DNA of 42,038 bases from Candidatus Aenigmatarchaeota archaeon. Lineage in GTDB: Archaea > Aenigmatarchaeota > Aenigmatarchaeia > CG10238-14 > SCSR01. A program made the translations under genes and the position numbers. The stretch is from NCBI GenBank assembly GCA_039091335.1, contig JAWCME010000001.1, forward strand, positions 76,024 through 118,061, written 5' to 3'. Below are positions 2,654-42,038 of the stretch, in pieces. The notes below the pieces were generated by a model that ran no database searches, was not told the DNA's origin, and saw only the letters and a list, made by a program, of their open reading frames with translations. How positions within the stretch are numbered: position 1 is the first letter of the stretch; each line of letters begins with the position of its first letter.

Positions 2654-3807
2654 TGATTTATATGGAAAATGAAGATAAGGGGAAGAGGGGAAGAAAAGAG
2701 AGGGAAGAAAAAAGTGAAACCAAAGAAGAAAGGATGAAAGAAATAAAGGAATTTTCAAAAAAAGTTTTGGAAAAATACGGGAAGTATATTAAGTGCATAG
2801 TGATGATGGGTTCTGTGGCAAGAGAAGAATTTAAACCGAAAAGTGATATAGACGTTTTTGTTGTCATAGATGATACTTCTTTTAATATAACACCAGAACT
2901 ACATGAAAAAATAGATGAAGACTTAGAAAAAATTGCAGAAAAAATCTCAAAAAGAATATCTGTTCAGCCCACATATACATTAACTGAATTTTGGGATTAT
3001 GCAAGAGTATGTCATCCAATAATATACAATTTCATAAAAGAAGGTGTTGCAATATACGATATTGGTTTTTTTGCTCCAATAAAAAAATTACTTGAAATGG
3101 GAAAAATACCCGCCACAAGAGAGGCAATAGAAAGCTACATGGAAGGTGCTCCAAAAAAACTTATTAGGGCAAAAACAGTAAAGCTTTTGATGCTTGCTGA
3201 GGATTGCTATTATGCAATGCTAAATACTGCGCAGGCTGTTCTTATGTTTATGGGAATTTCTCCTCCTGTTCCATCAAAGGCCTATGAGGAGGTTAAAAAA
3301 TTTCTTGTAGAACCTGGGATTTTAGAGCCAGAATATGCTGAGTGGTTAAGAGAAATAATAGAAATAAGGAAAAAGATTGAACACAAGGAGTTAATGGAAG
3401 TTAGTGGGGCATTTGTTGATGAATGGATTTCTAAGTCAGAAAAGTTTGTTGAAAAAATGTTTAACTTATTAGGTGCGCTAGAACTAAAAAAGAGGGAAAA
3501 GATAATTGAAAGAACGTATGAAGTTATGGTAAAGGCTGCCACAACTGCTTTAAAAAGTTTGAATAAAATGCCTGAAAAAGAAGAGGAAATACCATTAGCT
3601 TTTAAAAAAGAATTTGTAGAAGGAAAGCTTATAGAAAACTATTATTGGGATGTTTGGAAAAAAATAGAAGATATGAAAAAGACAAGTGAACAAAAGAAGG
3701 TTGAAGAAATACCAGAGAAGGAAGTATATGAGATGAGGGAATATGTAAGAAAACTAATTCACGACCTAGCTAGAGTTTTAAAAGAAAAGGAAATAAACAA
3801 ACAATAA
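2653..3807 (+). CDS. MNT-HEPN fusion protein with intact R-x4-H motif
   Basis: GSVAREE..SDIDVFVVIDD; HEPN-like DCYYAMLNTAQAVL...RKKIEH; paralogue of the preceding gene, 1-nt overlap. Confidence 0.75.
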   Translation: MIYMENEDKGKRGRKEREEKSETKEERMKEIKEFSKKVLEKYGKYIKCIVMMGSVAREEFKPKSDIDVFVVIDDTSFNITPELHEKIDEDLEKIAEKISKRISVQPTYTLTEFWDYARVCHPIIYNFIKEGVAIYDIGFFAPIKKLLEMGKIPATREAIESYMEGAPKKLIRAKTVKLLMLAEDCYYAMLNTAQAVLMFMGISPPVPSKAYEEVKKFLVEPGILEPEYAEWLREIIEIRKKIEHKELMEVSGAFVDEWISKSEKFVEKMFNLLGALELKKREKIIERTYEVMVKAATTALKSLNKMPEKEEEIPLAFKKEFVEGKLIENYYWDVWKKIEDMKKTSEQKKVEEIPEKEVYEMREYVRKLIHDLARVLKEKEINKQ

Positions 3808-3924
3808 TTGTTTGACCCAAAAAATCTTTTAACATATCAATTTCGAATAACAATTATGTACATTGAAATCTGCAAACATATTCTTATAGCTAAGAAATTT
3901 AAACTGGTTTCACAATTTTGAAAT

Positions 3925-4446
3925 ATGAAAGTTTATACAATAGGGCATAGTACAAGAAATTTTGAAGAATTCTTAAACATTTTAAAGAAATTCAACATTC
4001 TGGTTGTGATAGATGTTCGCCGTTTTCCCTCAAGCAGAAAATTTCCTTGGTTTAACAAAGAAAATCTAGAGAAAGAATTAACAAAAAACAAAATAGAATA
4101 TATTCACTTTCCTGAACTCGGCGGTTATAGAAATGAAGGATATGAAGCTTTCAGCAAAAGTGAATTTTTTTTTCAGGGCTTAGACAAACTAATAAAATTA
4201 ATTGATAAGAAAATTTCAGCTATACTGTGTTCTGAAATTTTATGGTGGCGCTGTCATCGAAGATATATTGCTAATGCTTTAGTAGAGAAAGGATTTGAAG
4301 TGATTCATGTGCTCGATGAAGAGAAAACTCAAGAGCATAAACCAAAAGAGAAAGAAATTGAAGAGAAGATGAAGCTTAAGGTTTGGTGCGATAAAAAACC
4401 AAGAAATATCAAAAAGAATGAAAAATTAAATTTTATCTATCTTTAA
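3925..4446 (+). CDS. DUF488 family protein
   Basis: VYTIGHSTR, IDVRRFPSSR, HFPELGG, LCSE..WWRCHRRYIA. Confidence 0.85.
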   Translation: MKVYTIGHSTRNFEEFLNILKKFNILVVIDVRRFPSSRKFPWFNKENLEKELTKNKIEYIHFPELGGYRNEGYEAFSKSEFFFQGLDKLIKLIDKKISAILCSEILWWRCHRRYIANALVEKGFEVIHVLDEEKTQEHKPKEKEIEEKMKLKVWCDKKPRNIKKNEKLNFIYL

Positions 4447-4471
4447 AATTTTTCTAAAATAAAATATTAAC

Positions 4472-5209
4472 ATGCTAACTTTGATTTCCATCTTAATTGC
4501 AACTTTTTTAGTAAGCCTAATAGCTTTTATCGGTATGATAACATTTTTAGTTAAAAAAAATCTTATGCGCAAAGCCCTTTTATTTCTTATTTCCCTTTCA
4601 GCAGGAGTTTTGCTTGGAAGTTCTTTTTTCCATTTAATCCTTGAGGCCTTAGAATTTTTGTCTTACAAAGAAATTTCTTTTTTCACCGTACTTGGTTTTA
4701 TAATTTTATTCTTCGTTGAAAAAATAATTCACTGGCATCATTGCCACAGGTTTAGATGTAAAATACATACCTTTGGATACATTAATATCATCGGCGACGC
4801 TGTACATAATTTTATAGACGGCTTAATAATAGCTGCAAGCTTTCTTTCAAGTTTTAAATTGGGTTTATCTACAACATTGGCAGTAATTTTACATGAAATT
4901 CCACAAGAAATCGGTGATTTCGGAGTTTTGGTTTATTCCGGCTTCAGTAAAAAGAAGGCTTTGTTTTTCAATTTTCTTTCAGCTTTGATTTCGGTTTGTG
5001 GCAGTCTATTTGGATATTTCATCTCTTTTGAATATGTTTTAAATTTTTTACTCCCTTTTGCAGCAGGTGGTTTTATATACATAGCAGCAAGTGACCTAAT
5101 CCCAGAAATAAAAAAAGAAACCAGAATAAGAAGATATTTAACTGAATTTGGTGTATTTTTGTTTGGAATTTTGTTGATGTATTTTTTTGCTTTTGTTTTT
5201 AAAACTTAA
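4472..5209 (+). CDS. ZIP family divalent metal transporter
   Basis: Multiple TM segments; GDAVHNFIDG, LHEIPQEIGD and His-rich HWHHCH loop. Confidence 0.9.
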   Translation: MLTLISILIATFLVSLIAFIGMITFLVKKNLMRKALLFLISLSAGVLLGSSFFHLILEALEFLSYKEISFFTVLGFIILFFVEKIIHWHHCHRFRCKIHTFGYINIIGDAVHNFIDGLIIAASFLSSFKLGLSTTLAVILHEIPQEIGDFGVLVYSGFSKKKALFFNFLSALISVCGSLFGYFISFEYVLNFLLPFAAGGFIYIAASDLIPEIKKETRIRRYLTEFGVFLFGILLMYFFAFVFKT

Positions 5210-5303
5210 AAAATATTTACAACATTTATCGGAATTATCGGAAGTTTAGTTTCAAAAATCTCATTTCTATTTCTTATTCTTTAATTAAATAAAAGGTGAT
5301 GTC

Positions 5304-5552
5304 ATGAATGAAAAAAATATTGAAAATAATAGAAGACCGTTTGATAATGGCTTTATAAGTATTGGTCAAGGAAAGGGAATAAAGTGGGTTCTATGGGAAA
5401 ATAATGTGACATTTCAAAGACAGGAAAAATTTGGAGATCAATGGCAAACCGTAGAAGAGTTTCATGCTCCATTGAGTCTACTTAAAGAAATAGCATGGAG
5501 AATAAGTCATTGGCTTGCAATAATAGACCAGAAAATGAACGAAAAAAAGTAA
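5304..5552 (+). CDS. Hypothetical protein
   Basis: 82-aa ORF with SD-like GGTGA upstream; no family recognised. Confidence 0.55.
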   Translation: MNEKNIENNRRPFDNGFISIGQGKGIKWVLWENNVTFQRQEKFGDQWQTVEEFHAPLSLLKEIAWRISHWLAIIDQKMNEKK

Positions 5553-37432: not shown

Positions 37433-39517
37433 ATGGTAGAAATGGGTTACACCCTAATAATAGCAGAGAAACCGGATGCAGCAAGAAGGATTGCTGAAGC
37501 TATAGCCGACTCAAAACTAAAAAAAATTGAAAAGTATGGAGTAGTATACTATGAGTTTGAAGTAAATGGGAAAAAACATGTTTGCGTCCCTGCTGTAGGT
37601 CATCTTTTTGTACTTTCTCCCACAAACAGTAAGTGGGATTATCCTGTTTTTGATTTTGAATGGATACCAACATACAAAAGAAAAGAAACAGCATGGACAG
37701 AAAAATACTTTAAAAACATTCAAGAACTTGCTAGAAAAGCTATTGAATTTATCGATGCGGCAGATGTTGATATCGAAGGTGAGGTTCTTTTGTACAACAT
37801 CTTGCGGTTTATTTGTAAAGTAAATGATGCAAAGCGTATGAAGTTTAGTACCCTAACAAAAGACGAGCTAAAGGAGTCTTACAAAAACATGGAAAAACAC
37901 ATCATGTTTCCAATGCTAGAAAGTGGATTAACTCGTCATGCCTTAGATGCCCTTTGGGGGTTTAATACAACACGTGCATTAACTCTTGCTTTAAAAAGCG
38001 CTGCTGAGAAAGGGTTTACAATTTTGTCTTCTGGTCGTGTACAGTCACCAACTTTAGCAATTTTGCTGGAAAGAGAACTTGAAATAAGGAAGTTCAAACC
38101 AAAGCCTTTTTGGGAACTTGAACTTCATATAAAAATAAACGGAACTGAAGCTATTGCTAGTTACGAGAAGGGAAGAATTTGGATAAAAGAGGAAGCCGAC
38201 AAGATATTGCAAGAATGCAAGGGCAAAGATGCAAAAGTGAAAGATATAAAGAAGAAGAAGTACAAGCAAGCACCACCTGTTCCTTTTAACACCACAGACC
38301 TGCAAGCTGAAGCTTACCAGCATTTTAAGTTTTCTCCCCAGCAAACTATGAATATAGCTGAAAGTTTATACCAACAAGGGTTTATAAGTTATCCTAGAAG
38401 TTCTTCACAAAAATTGCCACCAAGCATTAATTATGAGAAGATTTTGAAGGCGTTGTCTTCTTTACCGACATACAAGAAATTCGCAGAAGAAATTTTGAAG
38501 AAAGAAAAACTTGTGCCTATAGAAGGTAAAAAAGAAGATCCGGCTCATCCTGCCATTTACGCTACTTGGGAAGTACCTGATATGTCTAAACTTACTCCGC
38601 AACAAAGAAAGATTTATGATTTGATAGCAAGGCGTACTTTAGCTGTATTTGGAGACGAAGCGCTGAGGGAAACCAATACAGTTAGCTTAGATGTTGCTGG
38701 TCATACTTTCTTGCTTGTAGGTAAAAGAACTTTAGAGCCTGGATGGACGAAAATTTATGAACCTTACTTAAAGAGGGAAGAAATAATTTTACCTGAACTT
38801 CAAATTGGACAAATTGTTAAAGTAATTAAACTAGAAGAATTGACCAAAGAAACCCAACCACCTGCTCGCTATTCTCAGGGAAGCATAATAAAAGAAATGG
38901 AAGCCAGAAATCTTGGTACTAGAGCTACTAGGGCTGAGATTTTACAGACGCTTTATGATAGGGGATACATAAAAGGAAAGAGTATTCAAGTCACAAAGCT
39001 AGGAGAATCTGTTGTTAAAACTTTGAAAGAATACTGTCCAAGAATTTTATCAGAAGAGTTAACAAGAAAATTTGAAGAAGAGATGGATCTTGTTTTTCAA
39101 GGCAAGAAGAAAAGGGAGGAAGTAGTGGAAGAGGCAAAGAAAACTTTGAAAGAAATTTTGGAAGAGTTCAAGGCCAACGAGAAGAAAATTGGTAAAAGGC
39201 TTTTGGAAGCTTTGATGACAAAGAGAGAAGAAGAGAGAAGACTCGGAATCTGCCCCAAATGTAAAACAGGTGAGTTGAGAATTTTGAGGTCTAGACTTAG
39301 TGGGAAGTTTTTTGTTGGCTGTAGTAATTATCCAAACTGTAAGACAGGCTATCCTCTTCCAGCAGGATCAAACATTCAAGCTGTTGGTAGTGTATGTGAG
39401 AAATGTAACACCCCAATAATACAAGTTTTTAGGAAAGGTAAGAGACCTTTCAAGATGTGTTTAGACCCGAACTGCGAAACCAAAAAAGATTGGGTTAATA
39501 AAAAACAAAAAACTTGA
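37433..39517 (+). CDS. topA: DNA topoisomerase IA
   Basis: IIAEKP, AVGHL, DVDIEGE, GRVQSPTL, catalytic ISYPRS, C-terminal Zn fingers. Confidence 0.96.
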   Translation: MVEMGYTLIIAEKPDAARRIAEAIADSKLKKIEKYGVVYYEFEVNGKKHVCVPAVGHLFVLSPTNSKWDYPVFDFEWIPTYKRKETAWTEKYFKNIQELARKAIEFIDAADVDIEGEVLLYNILRFICKVNDAKRMKFSTLTKDELKESYKNMEKHIMFPMLESGLTRHALDALWGFNTTRALTLALKSAAEKGFTILSSGRVQSPTLAILLERELEIRKFKPKPFWELELHIKINGTEAIASYEKGRIWIKEEADKILQECKGKDAKVKDIKKKKYKQAPPVPFNTTDLQAEAYQHFKFSPQQTMNIAESLYQQGFISYPRSSSQKLPPSINYEKILKALSSLPTYKKFAEEILKKEKLVPIEGKKEDPAHPAIYATWEVPDMSKLTPQQRKIYDLIARRTLAVFGDEALRETNTVSLDVAGHTFLLVGKRTLEPGWTKIYEPYLKREEIILPELQIGQIVKVIKLEELTKETQPPARYSQGSIIKEMEARNLGTRATRAEILQTLYDRGYIKGKSIQVTKLGESVVKTLKEYCPRILSEELTRKFEEEMDLVFQGKKKREEVVEEAKKTLKEILEEFKANEKKIGKRLLEALMTKREEERRLGICPKCKTGELRILRSRLSGKFFVGCSNYPNCKTGYPLPAGSNIQAVGSVCEKCNTPIIQVFRKGKRPFKMCLDPNCETKKDWVNKKQKT

Positions 39518-39579: not shown

Positions 39580-40002
39580 CTATTGTCGAAGTTTGTAGTA
39601 TTTTTTTCGACTTTCGGTTCTTGATACAGCTATACCCTCTCGCTCCATTTCCTTCAAATATTCGTTGCACCTCGTTCTCGACAGTTTGATGAGCCTGCTA
39701 AGCTGAAAGGGTGTGAGCTCGCCATATTTTTGCAAAATCATCTTTATAGCTTCTTTTGTTTTTGAAGTCACTGGTTTTGTTGAAAGTTTGAATCCTCCTG
39801 CAGAAATTATCCTTTCAACTTCCCTCAACCTACTATCCATTTCTTGGATTTTCTCCCATAAATTTTTCAGTTTTTCTAACTCTATTGCCATTTGAGCTCT
39901 TTGGGCATCCATTTGCCTTAAAAGCTCTGCCATTTGCTCTTCGTTGCTGTTTTTCTTTTTAAGGATTAACAGGTTCACAATATAATTTTGTCTTTTCGAC
40001 AA
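39580..40002 (-). CDS. Coiled-coil plus winged-helix protein
   Basis: N-terminal heptads; ELTPFQLSRLIKLSRTRCNEYLKEMEREG wHTH. Start may be ATG 39933. Confidence 0.75.
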   Translation of the reverse strand: MSKRQNYIVNLLILKKKNSNEEQMAELLRQMDAQRAQMAIELEKLKNLWEKIQEMDSRLREVERIISAGGFKLSTKPVTSKTKEAIKMILQKYGELTPFQLSRLIKLSRTRCNEYLKEMEREGIAVSRTESRKKYYKLRQ

Positions 40003-40108
40003 TATAAAAGATTTTGATTTTTTCCAAGGATTTCAAGAAAAAAATGTCGATTTTAAAATTTTTCTGAAATTTCAAATAGCATATGAGGTTCGACAAACAT
40101 TTTCTATG

Positions 40109-40126
40109 TTGTACACCGGTGTACAA
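40109..40126. promoter_or_regulatory. Perfect 18-bp palindrome TTGTACACCGGTGTACAA
   Basis: Reads identically on both strands, 4 nt before ATG 40130; function inferred. Confidence 0.5.
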
Positions 40127-40129
40127 GAG

Positions 40130-42038
40130 ATGAAAGCTGAAGATTCTATAGAGAAAATTATAACTACGCTTAGAAAGCACCCAGAAGGCCTTACTCTAAG
40201 CTCTTTAGCAAAGCTCTCTGGTTTGCATAGACATACTTCTGCAAAGTATATCAGAAAGTTGGTTAAAGCCGGAACTGTTTTTTATAGAAAGATTGGGTCA
40301 GCAAAACTTTGCTACTTAAAAAATAAAGTGTCGACCCAAGAAAGAAAAAAACGTTTTTCGGTAAAAAAAGAGAAAGGATTTAATTTTGTTTTAATCCTTA
40401 CTGTGACATTTCTTTTCCTCTTACAACTAAGCATAGTAGCCCAAAATTTTTCTGGGTTTTTAAATGTTTCCAATTCTAGCGAATTAGAGCAAATTTATGG
40501 TCAATTTACAGAAAACTACGAAATTGTCGAAAATAACACTAATTCGACAAGTATTGAGGTTTTGCCCGTAGAAGAAGAAATTGTCGAATCTACTAGCACA
40601 ACATCAACCACAACCACTATGCCTTTTACTGAAGGAGAAAATAATACAGTCGAAATCGACAATTCAACTTCTCAAGATTTAGAATTTCCTTCTTATTATT
40701 TGTTTGGGGTAAGTAAAGAAAAAGTAATGATAGGAGAAGAAGTAGAATTTTTTGTTTTTTGGCAGGACGATTTTGGTTTGGATGAATGGATCTTCAGCTG
40801 GAATTCTTCTGGCTCTTGGGAGAATGAGAGCTATACTTTCATTTCAAGCTATGATGAAGAAACTAAAGTTTTAACAAAGCAAGGATGGAAGTATTTCAAA
40901 GATTTAAGCTACGAGGATGAGGTTGCAGTTCTTTCTGCTGATGAAATAAAATGGGAAAGGCCTTTGAGAATAGTTAAGCTTCCTTACGATGATGGAATCT
41001 ACAAGATAAACGGGGAAATTGATATCTGCGTTACTCCAAAACATAAAGTTTTTGCGAGAATTGATTATCCTTTGGACTTTGTGAAAAGGGCTAGAGATTT
41101 GTTGTTTGGGGTTGATTTGAGTGAGTTCAAATTCATTGAAGTGGAGAGAGCTTATGAGCTTGCTAAAGCTGGCTATGGCATAACTTTTCTTGACGAAAAT
41201 TTAAAGCCGATTTATGTCAAGCAAATAAGCTTGGAAAGTTATAAAGGGGTAATTTATGATTTAACTGTTCCTAGCCATATTATCCTAGTCAAGAGATTTG
41301 GAAAAGCGGTTTGGTCTTCAAACCTTAATATTTTGGAAGCATGGAGCAATGTAACAAAAACTGTTAACTCAGTTGGAACAATAGCTTTCAAATTCTACGC
41401 CTCGGACTTAGCAGGAAATTGGAATGAAACTGAAATTGGTCTTATGGAAGTCCTGCCTCAAATTTTAGAAGAAAATGTTCAGCCAAAACCTGAAATTAAA
41501 ATAGAAAAAATAGAAGCTCCTTATTCTGTTAATATTTCTGAAGAATTTGAAGTTAAGGCTTTTATAACTTCGCTGAATGGAAACTCTTCTGATGTTTTTG
41601 TTAGCTTACAAGCTCCAGAAGAATTTATAGCTGGAGACCTGCAAAAAACTTTAGCCCAGGTTGGGGAGAATGAAAGCTCGATGATATCTTGGCTATTAAA
41701 AGCAAACGAATGTGGAAATTATACTTTAAACATTACCACAGAAACAAATGAAAGTAAAGATTTTAAAAGTTTTGATATTGAGGTATTTTGCCCAGAAAAC
41801 ATAGGCTTTTTTCCTTTATTAGAAGCTTATGTAAAAGTTGAAAATATCAATAAAGGTAATTTTGTTTGGAAGTCTGTCACTATAAATGGTAACATTTCTG
41901 TCAATGGAAACTTAATCAAAGCAAATGTTAAAGTGAGTGTTGAGGATCCTGATGGAAAAATTATTTACCAAAAAAAGAAGGTTTCTGATGGCAACTTCAT
42001 CTTTAATTTTGAATTCTTGCCAGAATCCTTTGGTATTT
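40130..42038 (+). CDS. 3'-partial wHTH-TM-extracellular glycoprotein with embedded Hint domain (not in ORF track)
   Basis: Open for 636 codons to the window end. wHTH (LTLSSLAKLSGLHRHTSAKYIRKL), TM FNFVLILTVTFLFLLQLSIVA, Thr-rich linker, many N-x-S/T sequons, Ig-like segments. Confidence 0.85.
   Translation, partial: MKAEDSIEKIITTLRKHPEGLTLSSLAKLSGLHRHTSAKYIRKLVKAGTVFYRKIGSAKLCYLKNKVSTQERKKRFSVKKEKGFNFVLILTVTFLFLLQLSIVAQNFSGFLNVSNSSELEQIYGQFTENYEIVENNTNSTSIEVLPVEEEIVESTSTTSTTTTMPFTEGENNTVEIDNSTSQDLEFPSYYLFGVSKEKVMIGEEVEFFVFWQDDFGLDEWIFSWNSSGSWENESYTFISSYDEETKVLTKQGWKYFKDLSYEDEVAVLSADEIKWERPLRIVKLPYDDGIYKINGEIDICVTPKHKVFARIDYPLDFVKRARDLLFGVDLSEFKFIEVERAYELAKAGYGITFLDENLKPIYVKQISLESYKGVIYDLTVPSHIILVKRFGKAVWSSNLNILEAWSNVTKTVNSVGTIAFKFYASDLAGNWNETEIGLMEVLPQILEENVQPKPEIKIEKIEAPYSVNISEEFEVKAFITSLNGNSSDVFVSLQAPEEFIAGDLQKTLAQVGENESSMISWLLKANECGNYTLNITTETNESKDFKSFDIEVFCPENIGFFPLLEAYVKVENINKGNFVWKSVTINGNISVNGNLIKANVKVSVEDPDGKIIYQKKKVSDGNFIFNFEFLPESFGI
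40847..41323 (+). mobile_element. 159-aa Hint/mini-intein-like domain, no endonuclease
   Basis: Block A SYDEETKVLTKQGWKYFKDL, block B VTPKHKVF, block F IYDLTVPSH, ends KAVWSSN followed by Leu. Confidence 0.85.

Follow-up and report, generated by a model that had tools for sequence, protein, structure and literature searches.

An intein-derived Hint domain nested in an Ig-like domain of giant Aenigmatarchaeota surface proteins and its probable self-cleavage

The stretch of DNA analysed here, termed the window, comprises 42,038 nucleotides of a Candidatus Aenigmatarchaeota genome (GenBank assembly GCA_039091335.1; 570 kb, 33% G+C). Its last gene (40106..42037; this gene and all its features are on the forward strand) encodes the N-terminal 644 residues of a giant surface protein. 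The gene lacks its 3' end because the window ends at the end of a contig, C1. All named homologues of the encoded protein belong to metagenome bins of Candidatus Aenigmatarchaeota (DPANN). Residues 248-406 of this host protein (40847..41323) form a mini-Hint domain of 159 residues, identified by Pfam, phmmer, AlphaFold2 and Foldseek and apparently derived from an intein. The Hint domain is nested in an immunoglobulin-like (Ig-like), beta-rich domain, whose N-terminal half occupies residues 195-247 (40688..40846) and ends with ...ESYTFIS, and whose C-terminal half occupies residues 407-455 (41324..41470).

The Hint domain includes blocks A, B, F and G and no endonuclease, since 159 residues leave no room for one; both features had been proposed in the original prediction and can be read directly in the domain. 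Block A, SYDEETKVLT (40847..40876), aligns to the CYD.. start of canonical relatives and opens with Ser248, the N-terminal nucleophile (Ser1). Block B is T310-P-K-H313 (a TxxH motif; 41033..41044, codons read directly). The core of block F is D385-L-T-V-P-S-H391 (41258..41278) within IYDLTVPSH, and block G is V-W-S-S-N406 (41309..41323) within AVWSSN, Asn406 being the terminal residue. The C-extein begins with Leu407 (+1) and Asn408 (+2) at 41324..41329. The Hint fold, Ser1, TxxH and blocks F and G with the Asn of a class 1 intein are all present; the +1 nucleophile is absent.

When 371 genomes of the phylum were searched in six frames for the complete flank-Hint-flank module, it was identified at the same site in 13 Aenigmatarchaeota species. 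These species come from at least four families, namely the window's own (with several genera), two others of its order and a more distant one of the class. All of them share Ser1, the Thr and His of block B, the Asp and His of block F, the penultimate Ser, Asn406, Leu+1 and Asn+2, and likewise Tyr2 and Asp3 of block A, the Thr, Val and Pro of block F and the complete VWSSN of block G. Position -1 is variable and is occupied by Ser, Ala or Thr. The number of invariant columns in the Hint domain is 47 of 159, and all six catalytic positions are among them (hypergeometric p ~5e-4). The distant orthologues P0014, P0015, P0016 and P0018, found in protein databases, have the same junctions; they and P0008 also share the Leu-Asn at +1 and +2.

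At the level of curated profiles, the domain scores below the cut-offs for inteins. It matches Intein_splicing (PF14890, Pfam) with E 1.4e-6 and 28.6 bits (gathering score 35.8) and NCBIfam TIGR01445 with 18.1 bits vs a cut-off of 24.5; the PF14890 profile is matched at E<=0.01 by 11 of the 13 orthologues. In an exhaustive phmmer search with the Hint domain, 3,389 proteins scored E<=1e-3, and for 613 the value was E<=1e-10. The AlphaFold2 model, which covers the flanks and the Hint domain and was built on the 13 orthologues, has a mean predicted local distance difference test score (pLDDT) of 87.6 with no low-confidence segment. The top Foldseek matches of this model (6zgq, 6y75 and 2lwy) have probability 1.0 and template-modelling scores (TM-scores) of 0.67-0.78 on the target, and comparison with 6zgq, 1mi8, 6qaz and 4o1s gives probability 1.0 and TM-scores of 0.6-0.78 on the target. 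The best PDB matches, at probability 1.0, include the bacterial intein-like (BIL) domains BIL2 of Tetrahymena (6y75) and that of Clostridium thermocellum (2lwy), as well as the DnaB, gp41-1, VMA and Prp8 inteins. Structure prediction, proposed in the original prediction as a check, gives the Hint fold; the predicted structure, the Pfam match and the phmmer relatives together confirm that the Hint at 40847-41323 is real rather than a chance match.

Further Hint copies were not found in the same genome. The only other intein in it is canonical and interrupts the RNA polymerase A'' gene (G000:C26:19518-22007, forward strand). It has Ser1, His-Asn and Thr+1 (EPATQM/S...LAGLIDADG...ITHN/TMRTYHFAG, slashes here and below marking junctions) and provides an internal contrast to the Hint domain of the surface protein.

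The nearest non-orthologous relatives of the Hint domain are canonical Cys1...GN/Ser inteins, which are 35-44% identical to it (phmmer E down to 1e-46). At the N-terminus, these relatives read C-Y-D-[ED]-x-T-E-[VI]-L-T-x-x-G-W-K-x-F and the window Hint reads S-Y-D-E-E-T-K-V-L-T-K-Q-G-W-K-Y-F. At the C-terminus, V-P-[NS]-H-x-[IV]-x-V-[RK]-R-N-G-K-x-x-[WF]-[SC]-G-N followed by S or T in the relatives corresponds to V-P-S-H-I-I-L-V-K-R-F-G-K-A-V-W-S-S-N followed by L in the window, that is, IYDLTVPSHIILVKRFGKAVWSSN/L vs VYCVTVPNHIIMVRRNGKAVFSGN/S and VYSVEVPSHVIYVKRNGKSVWSGN/S. It follows from the alignment to canonical inteins that the domain ends with Asn406 and that Leu407 occupies +1. The Ser1, terminal Asn and +1 Leu of the original prediction are thus fixed by homology and invariant in the 13 species, which excludes canonical class 1 splicing; in the class 1 scheme, the branched intermediate requires a Cys, Ser or Thr side chain at +1 (PMC4031507). 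The sequence affinity indicates that the Hint domain is a captured intein rather than a Hint type of its own.

Canonical inteins of the same lineage (Cys1 ... WSGN/Ser) also interrupt giant surface proteins with LamG repeats (P0019, P0035 and P0074), and they bear long Ser/Asn/Leu-rich read-through inserts that resemble antisense coding sequence. The interruption of extracellular giant proteins by inteins appears to be more widespread in DPANN archaea.

The host domain is widespread among Aenigmatarchaeota surface proteins and matches no Pfam family. With the Hint domain removed, the flanks (...WENESYTFIS joined to LNILEAWSNVTKTVNS...) align without a gap to intact Hint-less copies in other Aenigmatarchaeota proteins, for example ...SWSNGSYTAFTGQANWSNTTR... 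and ...SWENSSGSFTGKQNWSNITK..., and a loop of normal length is restored. This gapless alignment places the Hint domain in a beta-turn and bears out the proposal that its flanks are two halves of one beta-rich domain; the N-terminal half has pLDDT 86-93, and the C-terminal half is likewise delimited by the Hint-less copies and the AlphaFold2 model. The search for Hint-less homologues, also suggested in the original prediction, had a mixed outcome: many Hint-less paralogous copies of the domain were found, and no clear orthologue with an empty site. Flank matches in three genomes (G013, G064 and G295) that seemed to reach into the Hint domain turned out to involve either host domains with no Hint or another kind of nested domain.

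One Hint-less paralogue, from a genus of the same family, reads WLNHFQKWSN where the window reads S/LNILEAWSN. Because it has W-L-N at that place, the Leu-Asn after the Hint domain may belong to the original host sequence and not represent a splice site changed by mutation, although a single alignment makes this only a lead. In another paralogous host domain (L038, G295:C1:84500-87000), which lies in an open frame of 12,864 codons, an unrelated beta-rich domain of ~330 residues is nested in the same loop as the Hint domain. The loop therefore tolerates insertions, and it looks like a hot spot for domain insertion.

The identity of the Hint domain between orthologues drops in step with that of the flanks, from 93% to 55%, which argues for vertical descent. 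In the one pair used for substitution analysis (window vs L003), the ratio of nonsynonymous to synonymous substitution rates is 0.063 for the Hint domain, 0.11 for the N-terminal half of the Ig-like domain, 0.23 for its C-terminal half and 0.33-0.38 for the rest. The Hint domain is the most constrained segment of the gene. The catalytic residues of both cleavage steps are under strong purifying selection, which fits an autoprocessing role.

The composition of the Hint domain also differs from that of its surroundings. It contains no NxS/T sequons, 1.9% Asn and 8.8% Ser+Thr, and the segments around it (40451-42037) contain ~10-11% Asn and 3.7-7.6 sequons per 100 residues. Among the 13 orthologues, 12 have no sequon in the Hint domain, and their flanks have 3-6 per 99 residues. 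Such avoidance would fit a part of the protein that folds unglycosylated or gets discarded.

In the orthologue P0008 (L041, gene at 3001-5415, forward strand), the Hint coding region has an insert of ~1.1 kb directly after block A. The host frame stays open through it for ~370 codons, and its opposite strand (L041 3747-4493) encodes a PIN-domain protein (PF10130, E 2.6e-14) and a 105-residue partner.

Open frames of the orthologues range from 2,543 to 14,236 residues. In the orthologues read, no other folded domain stands between the N-terminal anchor and the Hint module; the sole exception is P0087, where one domain precedes it. Most copies end at contig ends and two are complete: a single open frame of 14,236 codons in G077 (C1:56732-99442, reverse strand; L034, L036), which begins with the winged-helix head and extends to the stop codon, and an open frame of 11,607 codons in G151 (C12; L035). 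The complete orthologues consist of a winged helix-turn-helix (wHTH) head, a transmembrane (TM) helix, the Ig-like domain with its Hint domain, a giant glycosylated ectodomain, then a Pro-rich linker, Ig-like domains and a second TM helix, a HerA/DUF87-type P-loop ATPase (45.4 bits, above the curated cut-off) and a coiled coil. Both ends of these proteins are thus predicted to be cytoplasmic, one DNA-binding-like and the other an ATPase of the FtsK/HerA family.

This architecture bears on the proposal that the Hint domain is a switch that sheds the distal surface region. With anchors at both ends, a cut at the Hint domain alone would not shed the ectodomain, and simple shedding is unlikely, given the second TM helix and cytoplasmic HerA-type ATPase of the complete orthologues. 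Cleavage would instead uncouple the ectodomain from its N-terminal wHTH-TM anchor.

In the window, the winged-helix-like, cytoplasmic head covers residues 16-57 (40151..40276). It is recognized by its conservation in orthologues and by weak Pfam matches to HTH_36, HTH_24, IclR and MarR (E 0.003-0.06), and its best PDB match is an IclR-type regulator (E 0.08). A single TM helix or signal anchor follows at about residues 93-113 (40382..40444), with a Kyte-Doolittle maximum of 2.57 at residue 94; the basic stretch KKRFSVKKEK upstream of it would fit a cytoplasmic side by the positive-inside rule. Residues 116-194 (40451..40687) form a linker rich in Ser/Thr and Asn, with N-glycosylation sequons (7.6 per 100 residues), and the part of the 644 residues beyond the Hint-bearing domain contains more sequon-rich beta domains. 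The wHTH-TM head was also found on proteins with unrelated ectodomains. The motif of the head with its basic stretch and TM helix, HPEGLT..LA..GLHRHT..KY...L...G.....R.G.A.LCYL (window 40130-40460), recurs in 52 of 70 genomes of the family, in proteins of 282 to >4,000 residues, mostly without a Hint domain.

A gene for a small wHTH protein of 140 residues (39580..40002, reverse strand) is the divergent neighbour of the host gene, and this arrangement is conserved in all four loci read (the window, L003, L036 of G077, and L041). A topoisomerase I gene is also located upstream in the window (37433-39517) and in L003, where an exosortase/archaeosortase-like gene (PF09721) lies ~5 kb upstream.

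Taking the sequence evidence together, we consider it probable that the Hint domain is a domesticated, vertically inherited descendant of an intein that cleaves rather than splices canonically. In this scenario, an intein of the CYD..T.[VI]LT..GWK...W[SC]GN/[ST] lineage would have become fixed in a membrane-anchored giant surface protein, within a loop of its first Ig-like domain outside the cell, and would since have been inherited vertically, with no homing endonuclease. According to established intein chemistry, Ser1 with the Thr and His of block B would drive an N-to-O acyl shift at the FIS/S junction, and the Asp and His of block F with the terminal Asn would drive succinimide formation and break the N406/L407 bond. 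With Leu at +1, no branched intermediate could arise. Once the protein had been exported by Sec and had folded extracellularly, cleavage at one or both junctions would let the Hint domain excise itself. The N-terminal fragment would end with ...ESYTFIS and the C-terminal fragment would start with LNILEAWSNVTK. The product would be a nicked Ig-like domain in which the stub of wHTH head, TM helix and linker is no longer covalently joined to the giant ectodomain, and, judging from the complete orthologues, the ectodomain would remain held at its far end by the second TM helix and the HerA-type ATPase.

Self-cleavage or self-excision with no canonical splicing is, on these grounds, the activity that we favour. 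An oxoester at Ser1 is less reactive to aminolysis than a thioester, which favours cleavage over ligation. In A-type BIL domains, cleavage products dominate (PMC4031507, PMC7765530). That these reactions occur in the window protein, that cleavage dominates ligation and what purpose the cut serves are points that we infer. The suggestion of autocleavage in place of a selfish intein holds in part: the conserved residues fit autoprocessing, and the lineage is one of canonical inteins, which makes the domain a captured intein.

Several observations weigh against a domesticated, cleaving domain. The penultimate Hint residue is Ser and not the usual His. The canonical relatives likewise have no penultimate His (Gly or Ser is found there, W[SC]GN), and its absence appears to be a trait of the whole lineage and not a defect of the window Hint. 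As canonical inteins of this lineage occur in other extracellular giants, location alone is no argument for domestication. In an insertion-tolerant loop, an unprocessed Hint domain could be structurally harmless. A tblastn search did not find a HerA-like tail in the window's assembly, where the gene is truncated, and other contig ends of this assembly have no long sequon-rich open frame. Finally, conserved catalytic residues would be equally expected if the domain were removed by atypical splicing.

Atypical splicing of this kind, as in A-type BIL domains that have no +1 nucleophile, is the main rival, though we regard it as doubtful. Following formation of the Ser1 ester, Asn406 would cyclise and the freed alpha-amine of Leu407 would attack the ester, resealing the host domain with the joined peptide ESYTFISLNILEAWSNVTK (FIS-LNILEA); the Hint domain would then be a trapped, must-excise intein with no further role. 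A-type BIL domains are able to join their flanks by this route (PMC4031507), the window Hint has both of its reactive ends conserved, and the extein halves belong to one domain, a geometry that would favour intramolecular aminolysis. Strong purifying selection is also as expected of a must-excise element. However, cleavage products outweigh the spliced product in BIL domains (PMC4031507), and on chemical grounds amines should take up the acyl group less readily from the Ser1 oxoester than from the Cys thioester of these domains. Moreover, over such divergence some reversion to Ser, Thr or Cys at +1 would be expected, and Leu is invariant. The domain could also be an ordinary class 1 intein if its boundaries had been misplaced and the real C-terminal junction lay before Ser, Thr or Cys. 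This reading could draw on an N/S dipeptide 15 residues downstream (KTVN/SVG), but we give it hardly any credence. Residue-by-residue homology to canonical inteins sets the terminal Asn at 406, the 15 residues after it match the Hint-less host domain (WSNVTKTVNS vs WSNITKAIPS and similar), and residues from 407 on lie in strands of the host domain in the AlphaFold2 model.

Two minor rivals concern the fate of the ester and the possibility of no reaction at all. Instead of water, a foreign molecule (for example a lipid, a glycan or another protein with its amine) could act as the nucleophile that resolves the Ser1 ester, leaving the C-terminus of the wHTH-TM-linker fragment covalently attached to that molecule. 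Hint domains can pass an N-terminal acyl group to a foreign nucleophile, as Hedgehog does to cholesterol (PMC7765530), and the window Hint is extracellular and adjoins the membrane. Such a transfer is nevertheless rather improbable: no adduct-recognition region follows the Hint domain, the region between blocks B and F is common to the mini-inteins of the lineage, no match to PF01079 (Hint/Hog) was found at E<=1, and the conserved terminal Asn and block F His are unneeded for this reaction. It is also unlikely that the Hint domain is catalytically silent and retained in the mature protein as a structural or binding module, even though the same loop of a paralogous domain holds the unrelated nested domain of ~330 residues. 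The N- and C-termini of the Hint fold lie close together and need not disturb the host fold, and both halves of the host domain have high pLDDT in the model of the precursor. With 70% of Hint columns variable, the invariance of Leu+1, the penultimate Ser and all six catalytic positions is at odds with a silent module, and so is the avoidance of sequons in the Hint domain, which no neighbouring segment of the ectodomain shares.

If the favoured self-cleavage is correct, the domain would provide a clean natural case of an intein caught after domestication: its ancestry among canonical inteins can still be traced, there is no +1 nucleophile, and it is under stronger selection than its host. DPANN archaea are thought to live attached to other cells. 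The Hint domain has a fixed position next to the membrane anchor in proteins that reach 14,236 residues, and it may bear on the maturation of such giant adhesins or on their signalling. A Cys-free Hint domain of 159 residues, presumably working outside the cell, could also be useful for protein engineering if it is active.

Hint domains that cut and do not splice are known in bacteria (BIL domains and pretoxin HINT) and in eukaryotes (Hedgehog). The literature that we found consisted of papers on BIL, Hedgehog and pretoxin-HINT domains, with none on Hint domains in surface proteins of DPANN or other archaea.

The closest comparison by sequence is with the canonical class 1 mini-inteins of the lineage CYD..T.[VI]LT..GWK...VRRNGK..W[SC]GN/[ST], represented by P0012, P0017, P0022, P0110 and P0131. 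The window Hint shares with them blocks A, B, F and G as well as a linker subdomain located between B and F, and like them it has no penultimate His. Unlike them, it has Ser1 in place of Cys1 and Leu+1 in place of Ser or Thr, contains no endonuclease or other cargo, and is vertically inherited at a single site in one orthologous group. Its host site also differs from those of canonical inteins, being a loop of a fast-evolving surface domain and not a conserved enzyme motif.

In its likely workings, the window Hint is similar to A-type BIL domains, reportedly described by Amitai in 2003 and Dassa in 2004. Both have the Hint fold, an N-terminal nucleophile, a C-terminal Asn, no +1 nucleophile and no endonuclease, both occur in secreted or surface proteins, and the expected chemistry is cleavage with or without aminolytic ligation (PMC4031507). 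A-type BIL domains are defined by a conserved C-terminal His-Asn (PMC4031507, PMC7765530) and have Cys1, whereas the window Hint has Ser1 and Ser-Asn (VWSSN). BIL domains lie in hypervariable regions between domains (PMC7765530), in secreted bacterial proteins that are not conserved; the window Hint is archaeal and occupies one conserved position within a folded domain in all orthologues. Its sequence places it among true inteins and not in a separate BIL type.

The pretoxin HINT domains, which occur in polymorphic toxins of bacteria (Zhang et al. 2012, PMC3482391), are likewise Hint autopeptidases within very long filamentous surface proteins. They are located directly upstream of a C-terminal toxin, which they release, whereas the window Hint lies ~250 residues from the N-terminus, near the anchor, and the orthologues end with a TM helix and a HerA/DUF87 ATPase instead of a toxin; the window Hint has no match to PF07591 (pretoxin HINT) at E<=1. 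Hedgehog/Hog domains differ in that the window Hint has Ser1 and a conserved terminal Asn, and in that its host domain resumes directly after it.

The SEA, GAIN and ZU5-type domains are autoproteolytic domains of eukaryotic surface proteins. Excision with no ligation would follow a logic similar to that of SEA and GAIN, a nicked beta-sandwich near the membrane whose halves may hold together non-covalently. There is no homology to SEA, GAIN or ZU5, and the cut would be made by an enzyme domain that is itself excised and not by strain in the host fold. By this analogy, we tentatively speculate that the Hint-split Ig-like domain is a self-made non-covalent latch, an archaeal counterpart of the SEA/GAIN logic built from a captured intein. 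If self-excision were constitutive, the adhesin would remain tied to the wHTH-TM stub only via the two halves of the beta-sandwich, with its far end, judging from the complete orthologues, anchored to a HerA-type ATPase. Force or contact with a host could separate the halves and open the double-anchored loop, possibly exposing the stub, and the tethered winged-helix domain would then report the contact to the cell. Among the known systems, the window Hint is best described, from its motifs and relatives, as a putative intein-derived autoprocessing domain, BIL-like in its workings and a relative of true inteins by sequence.

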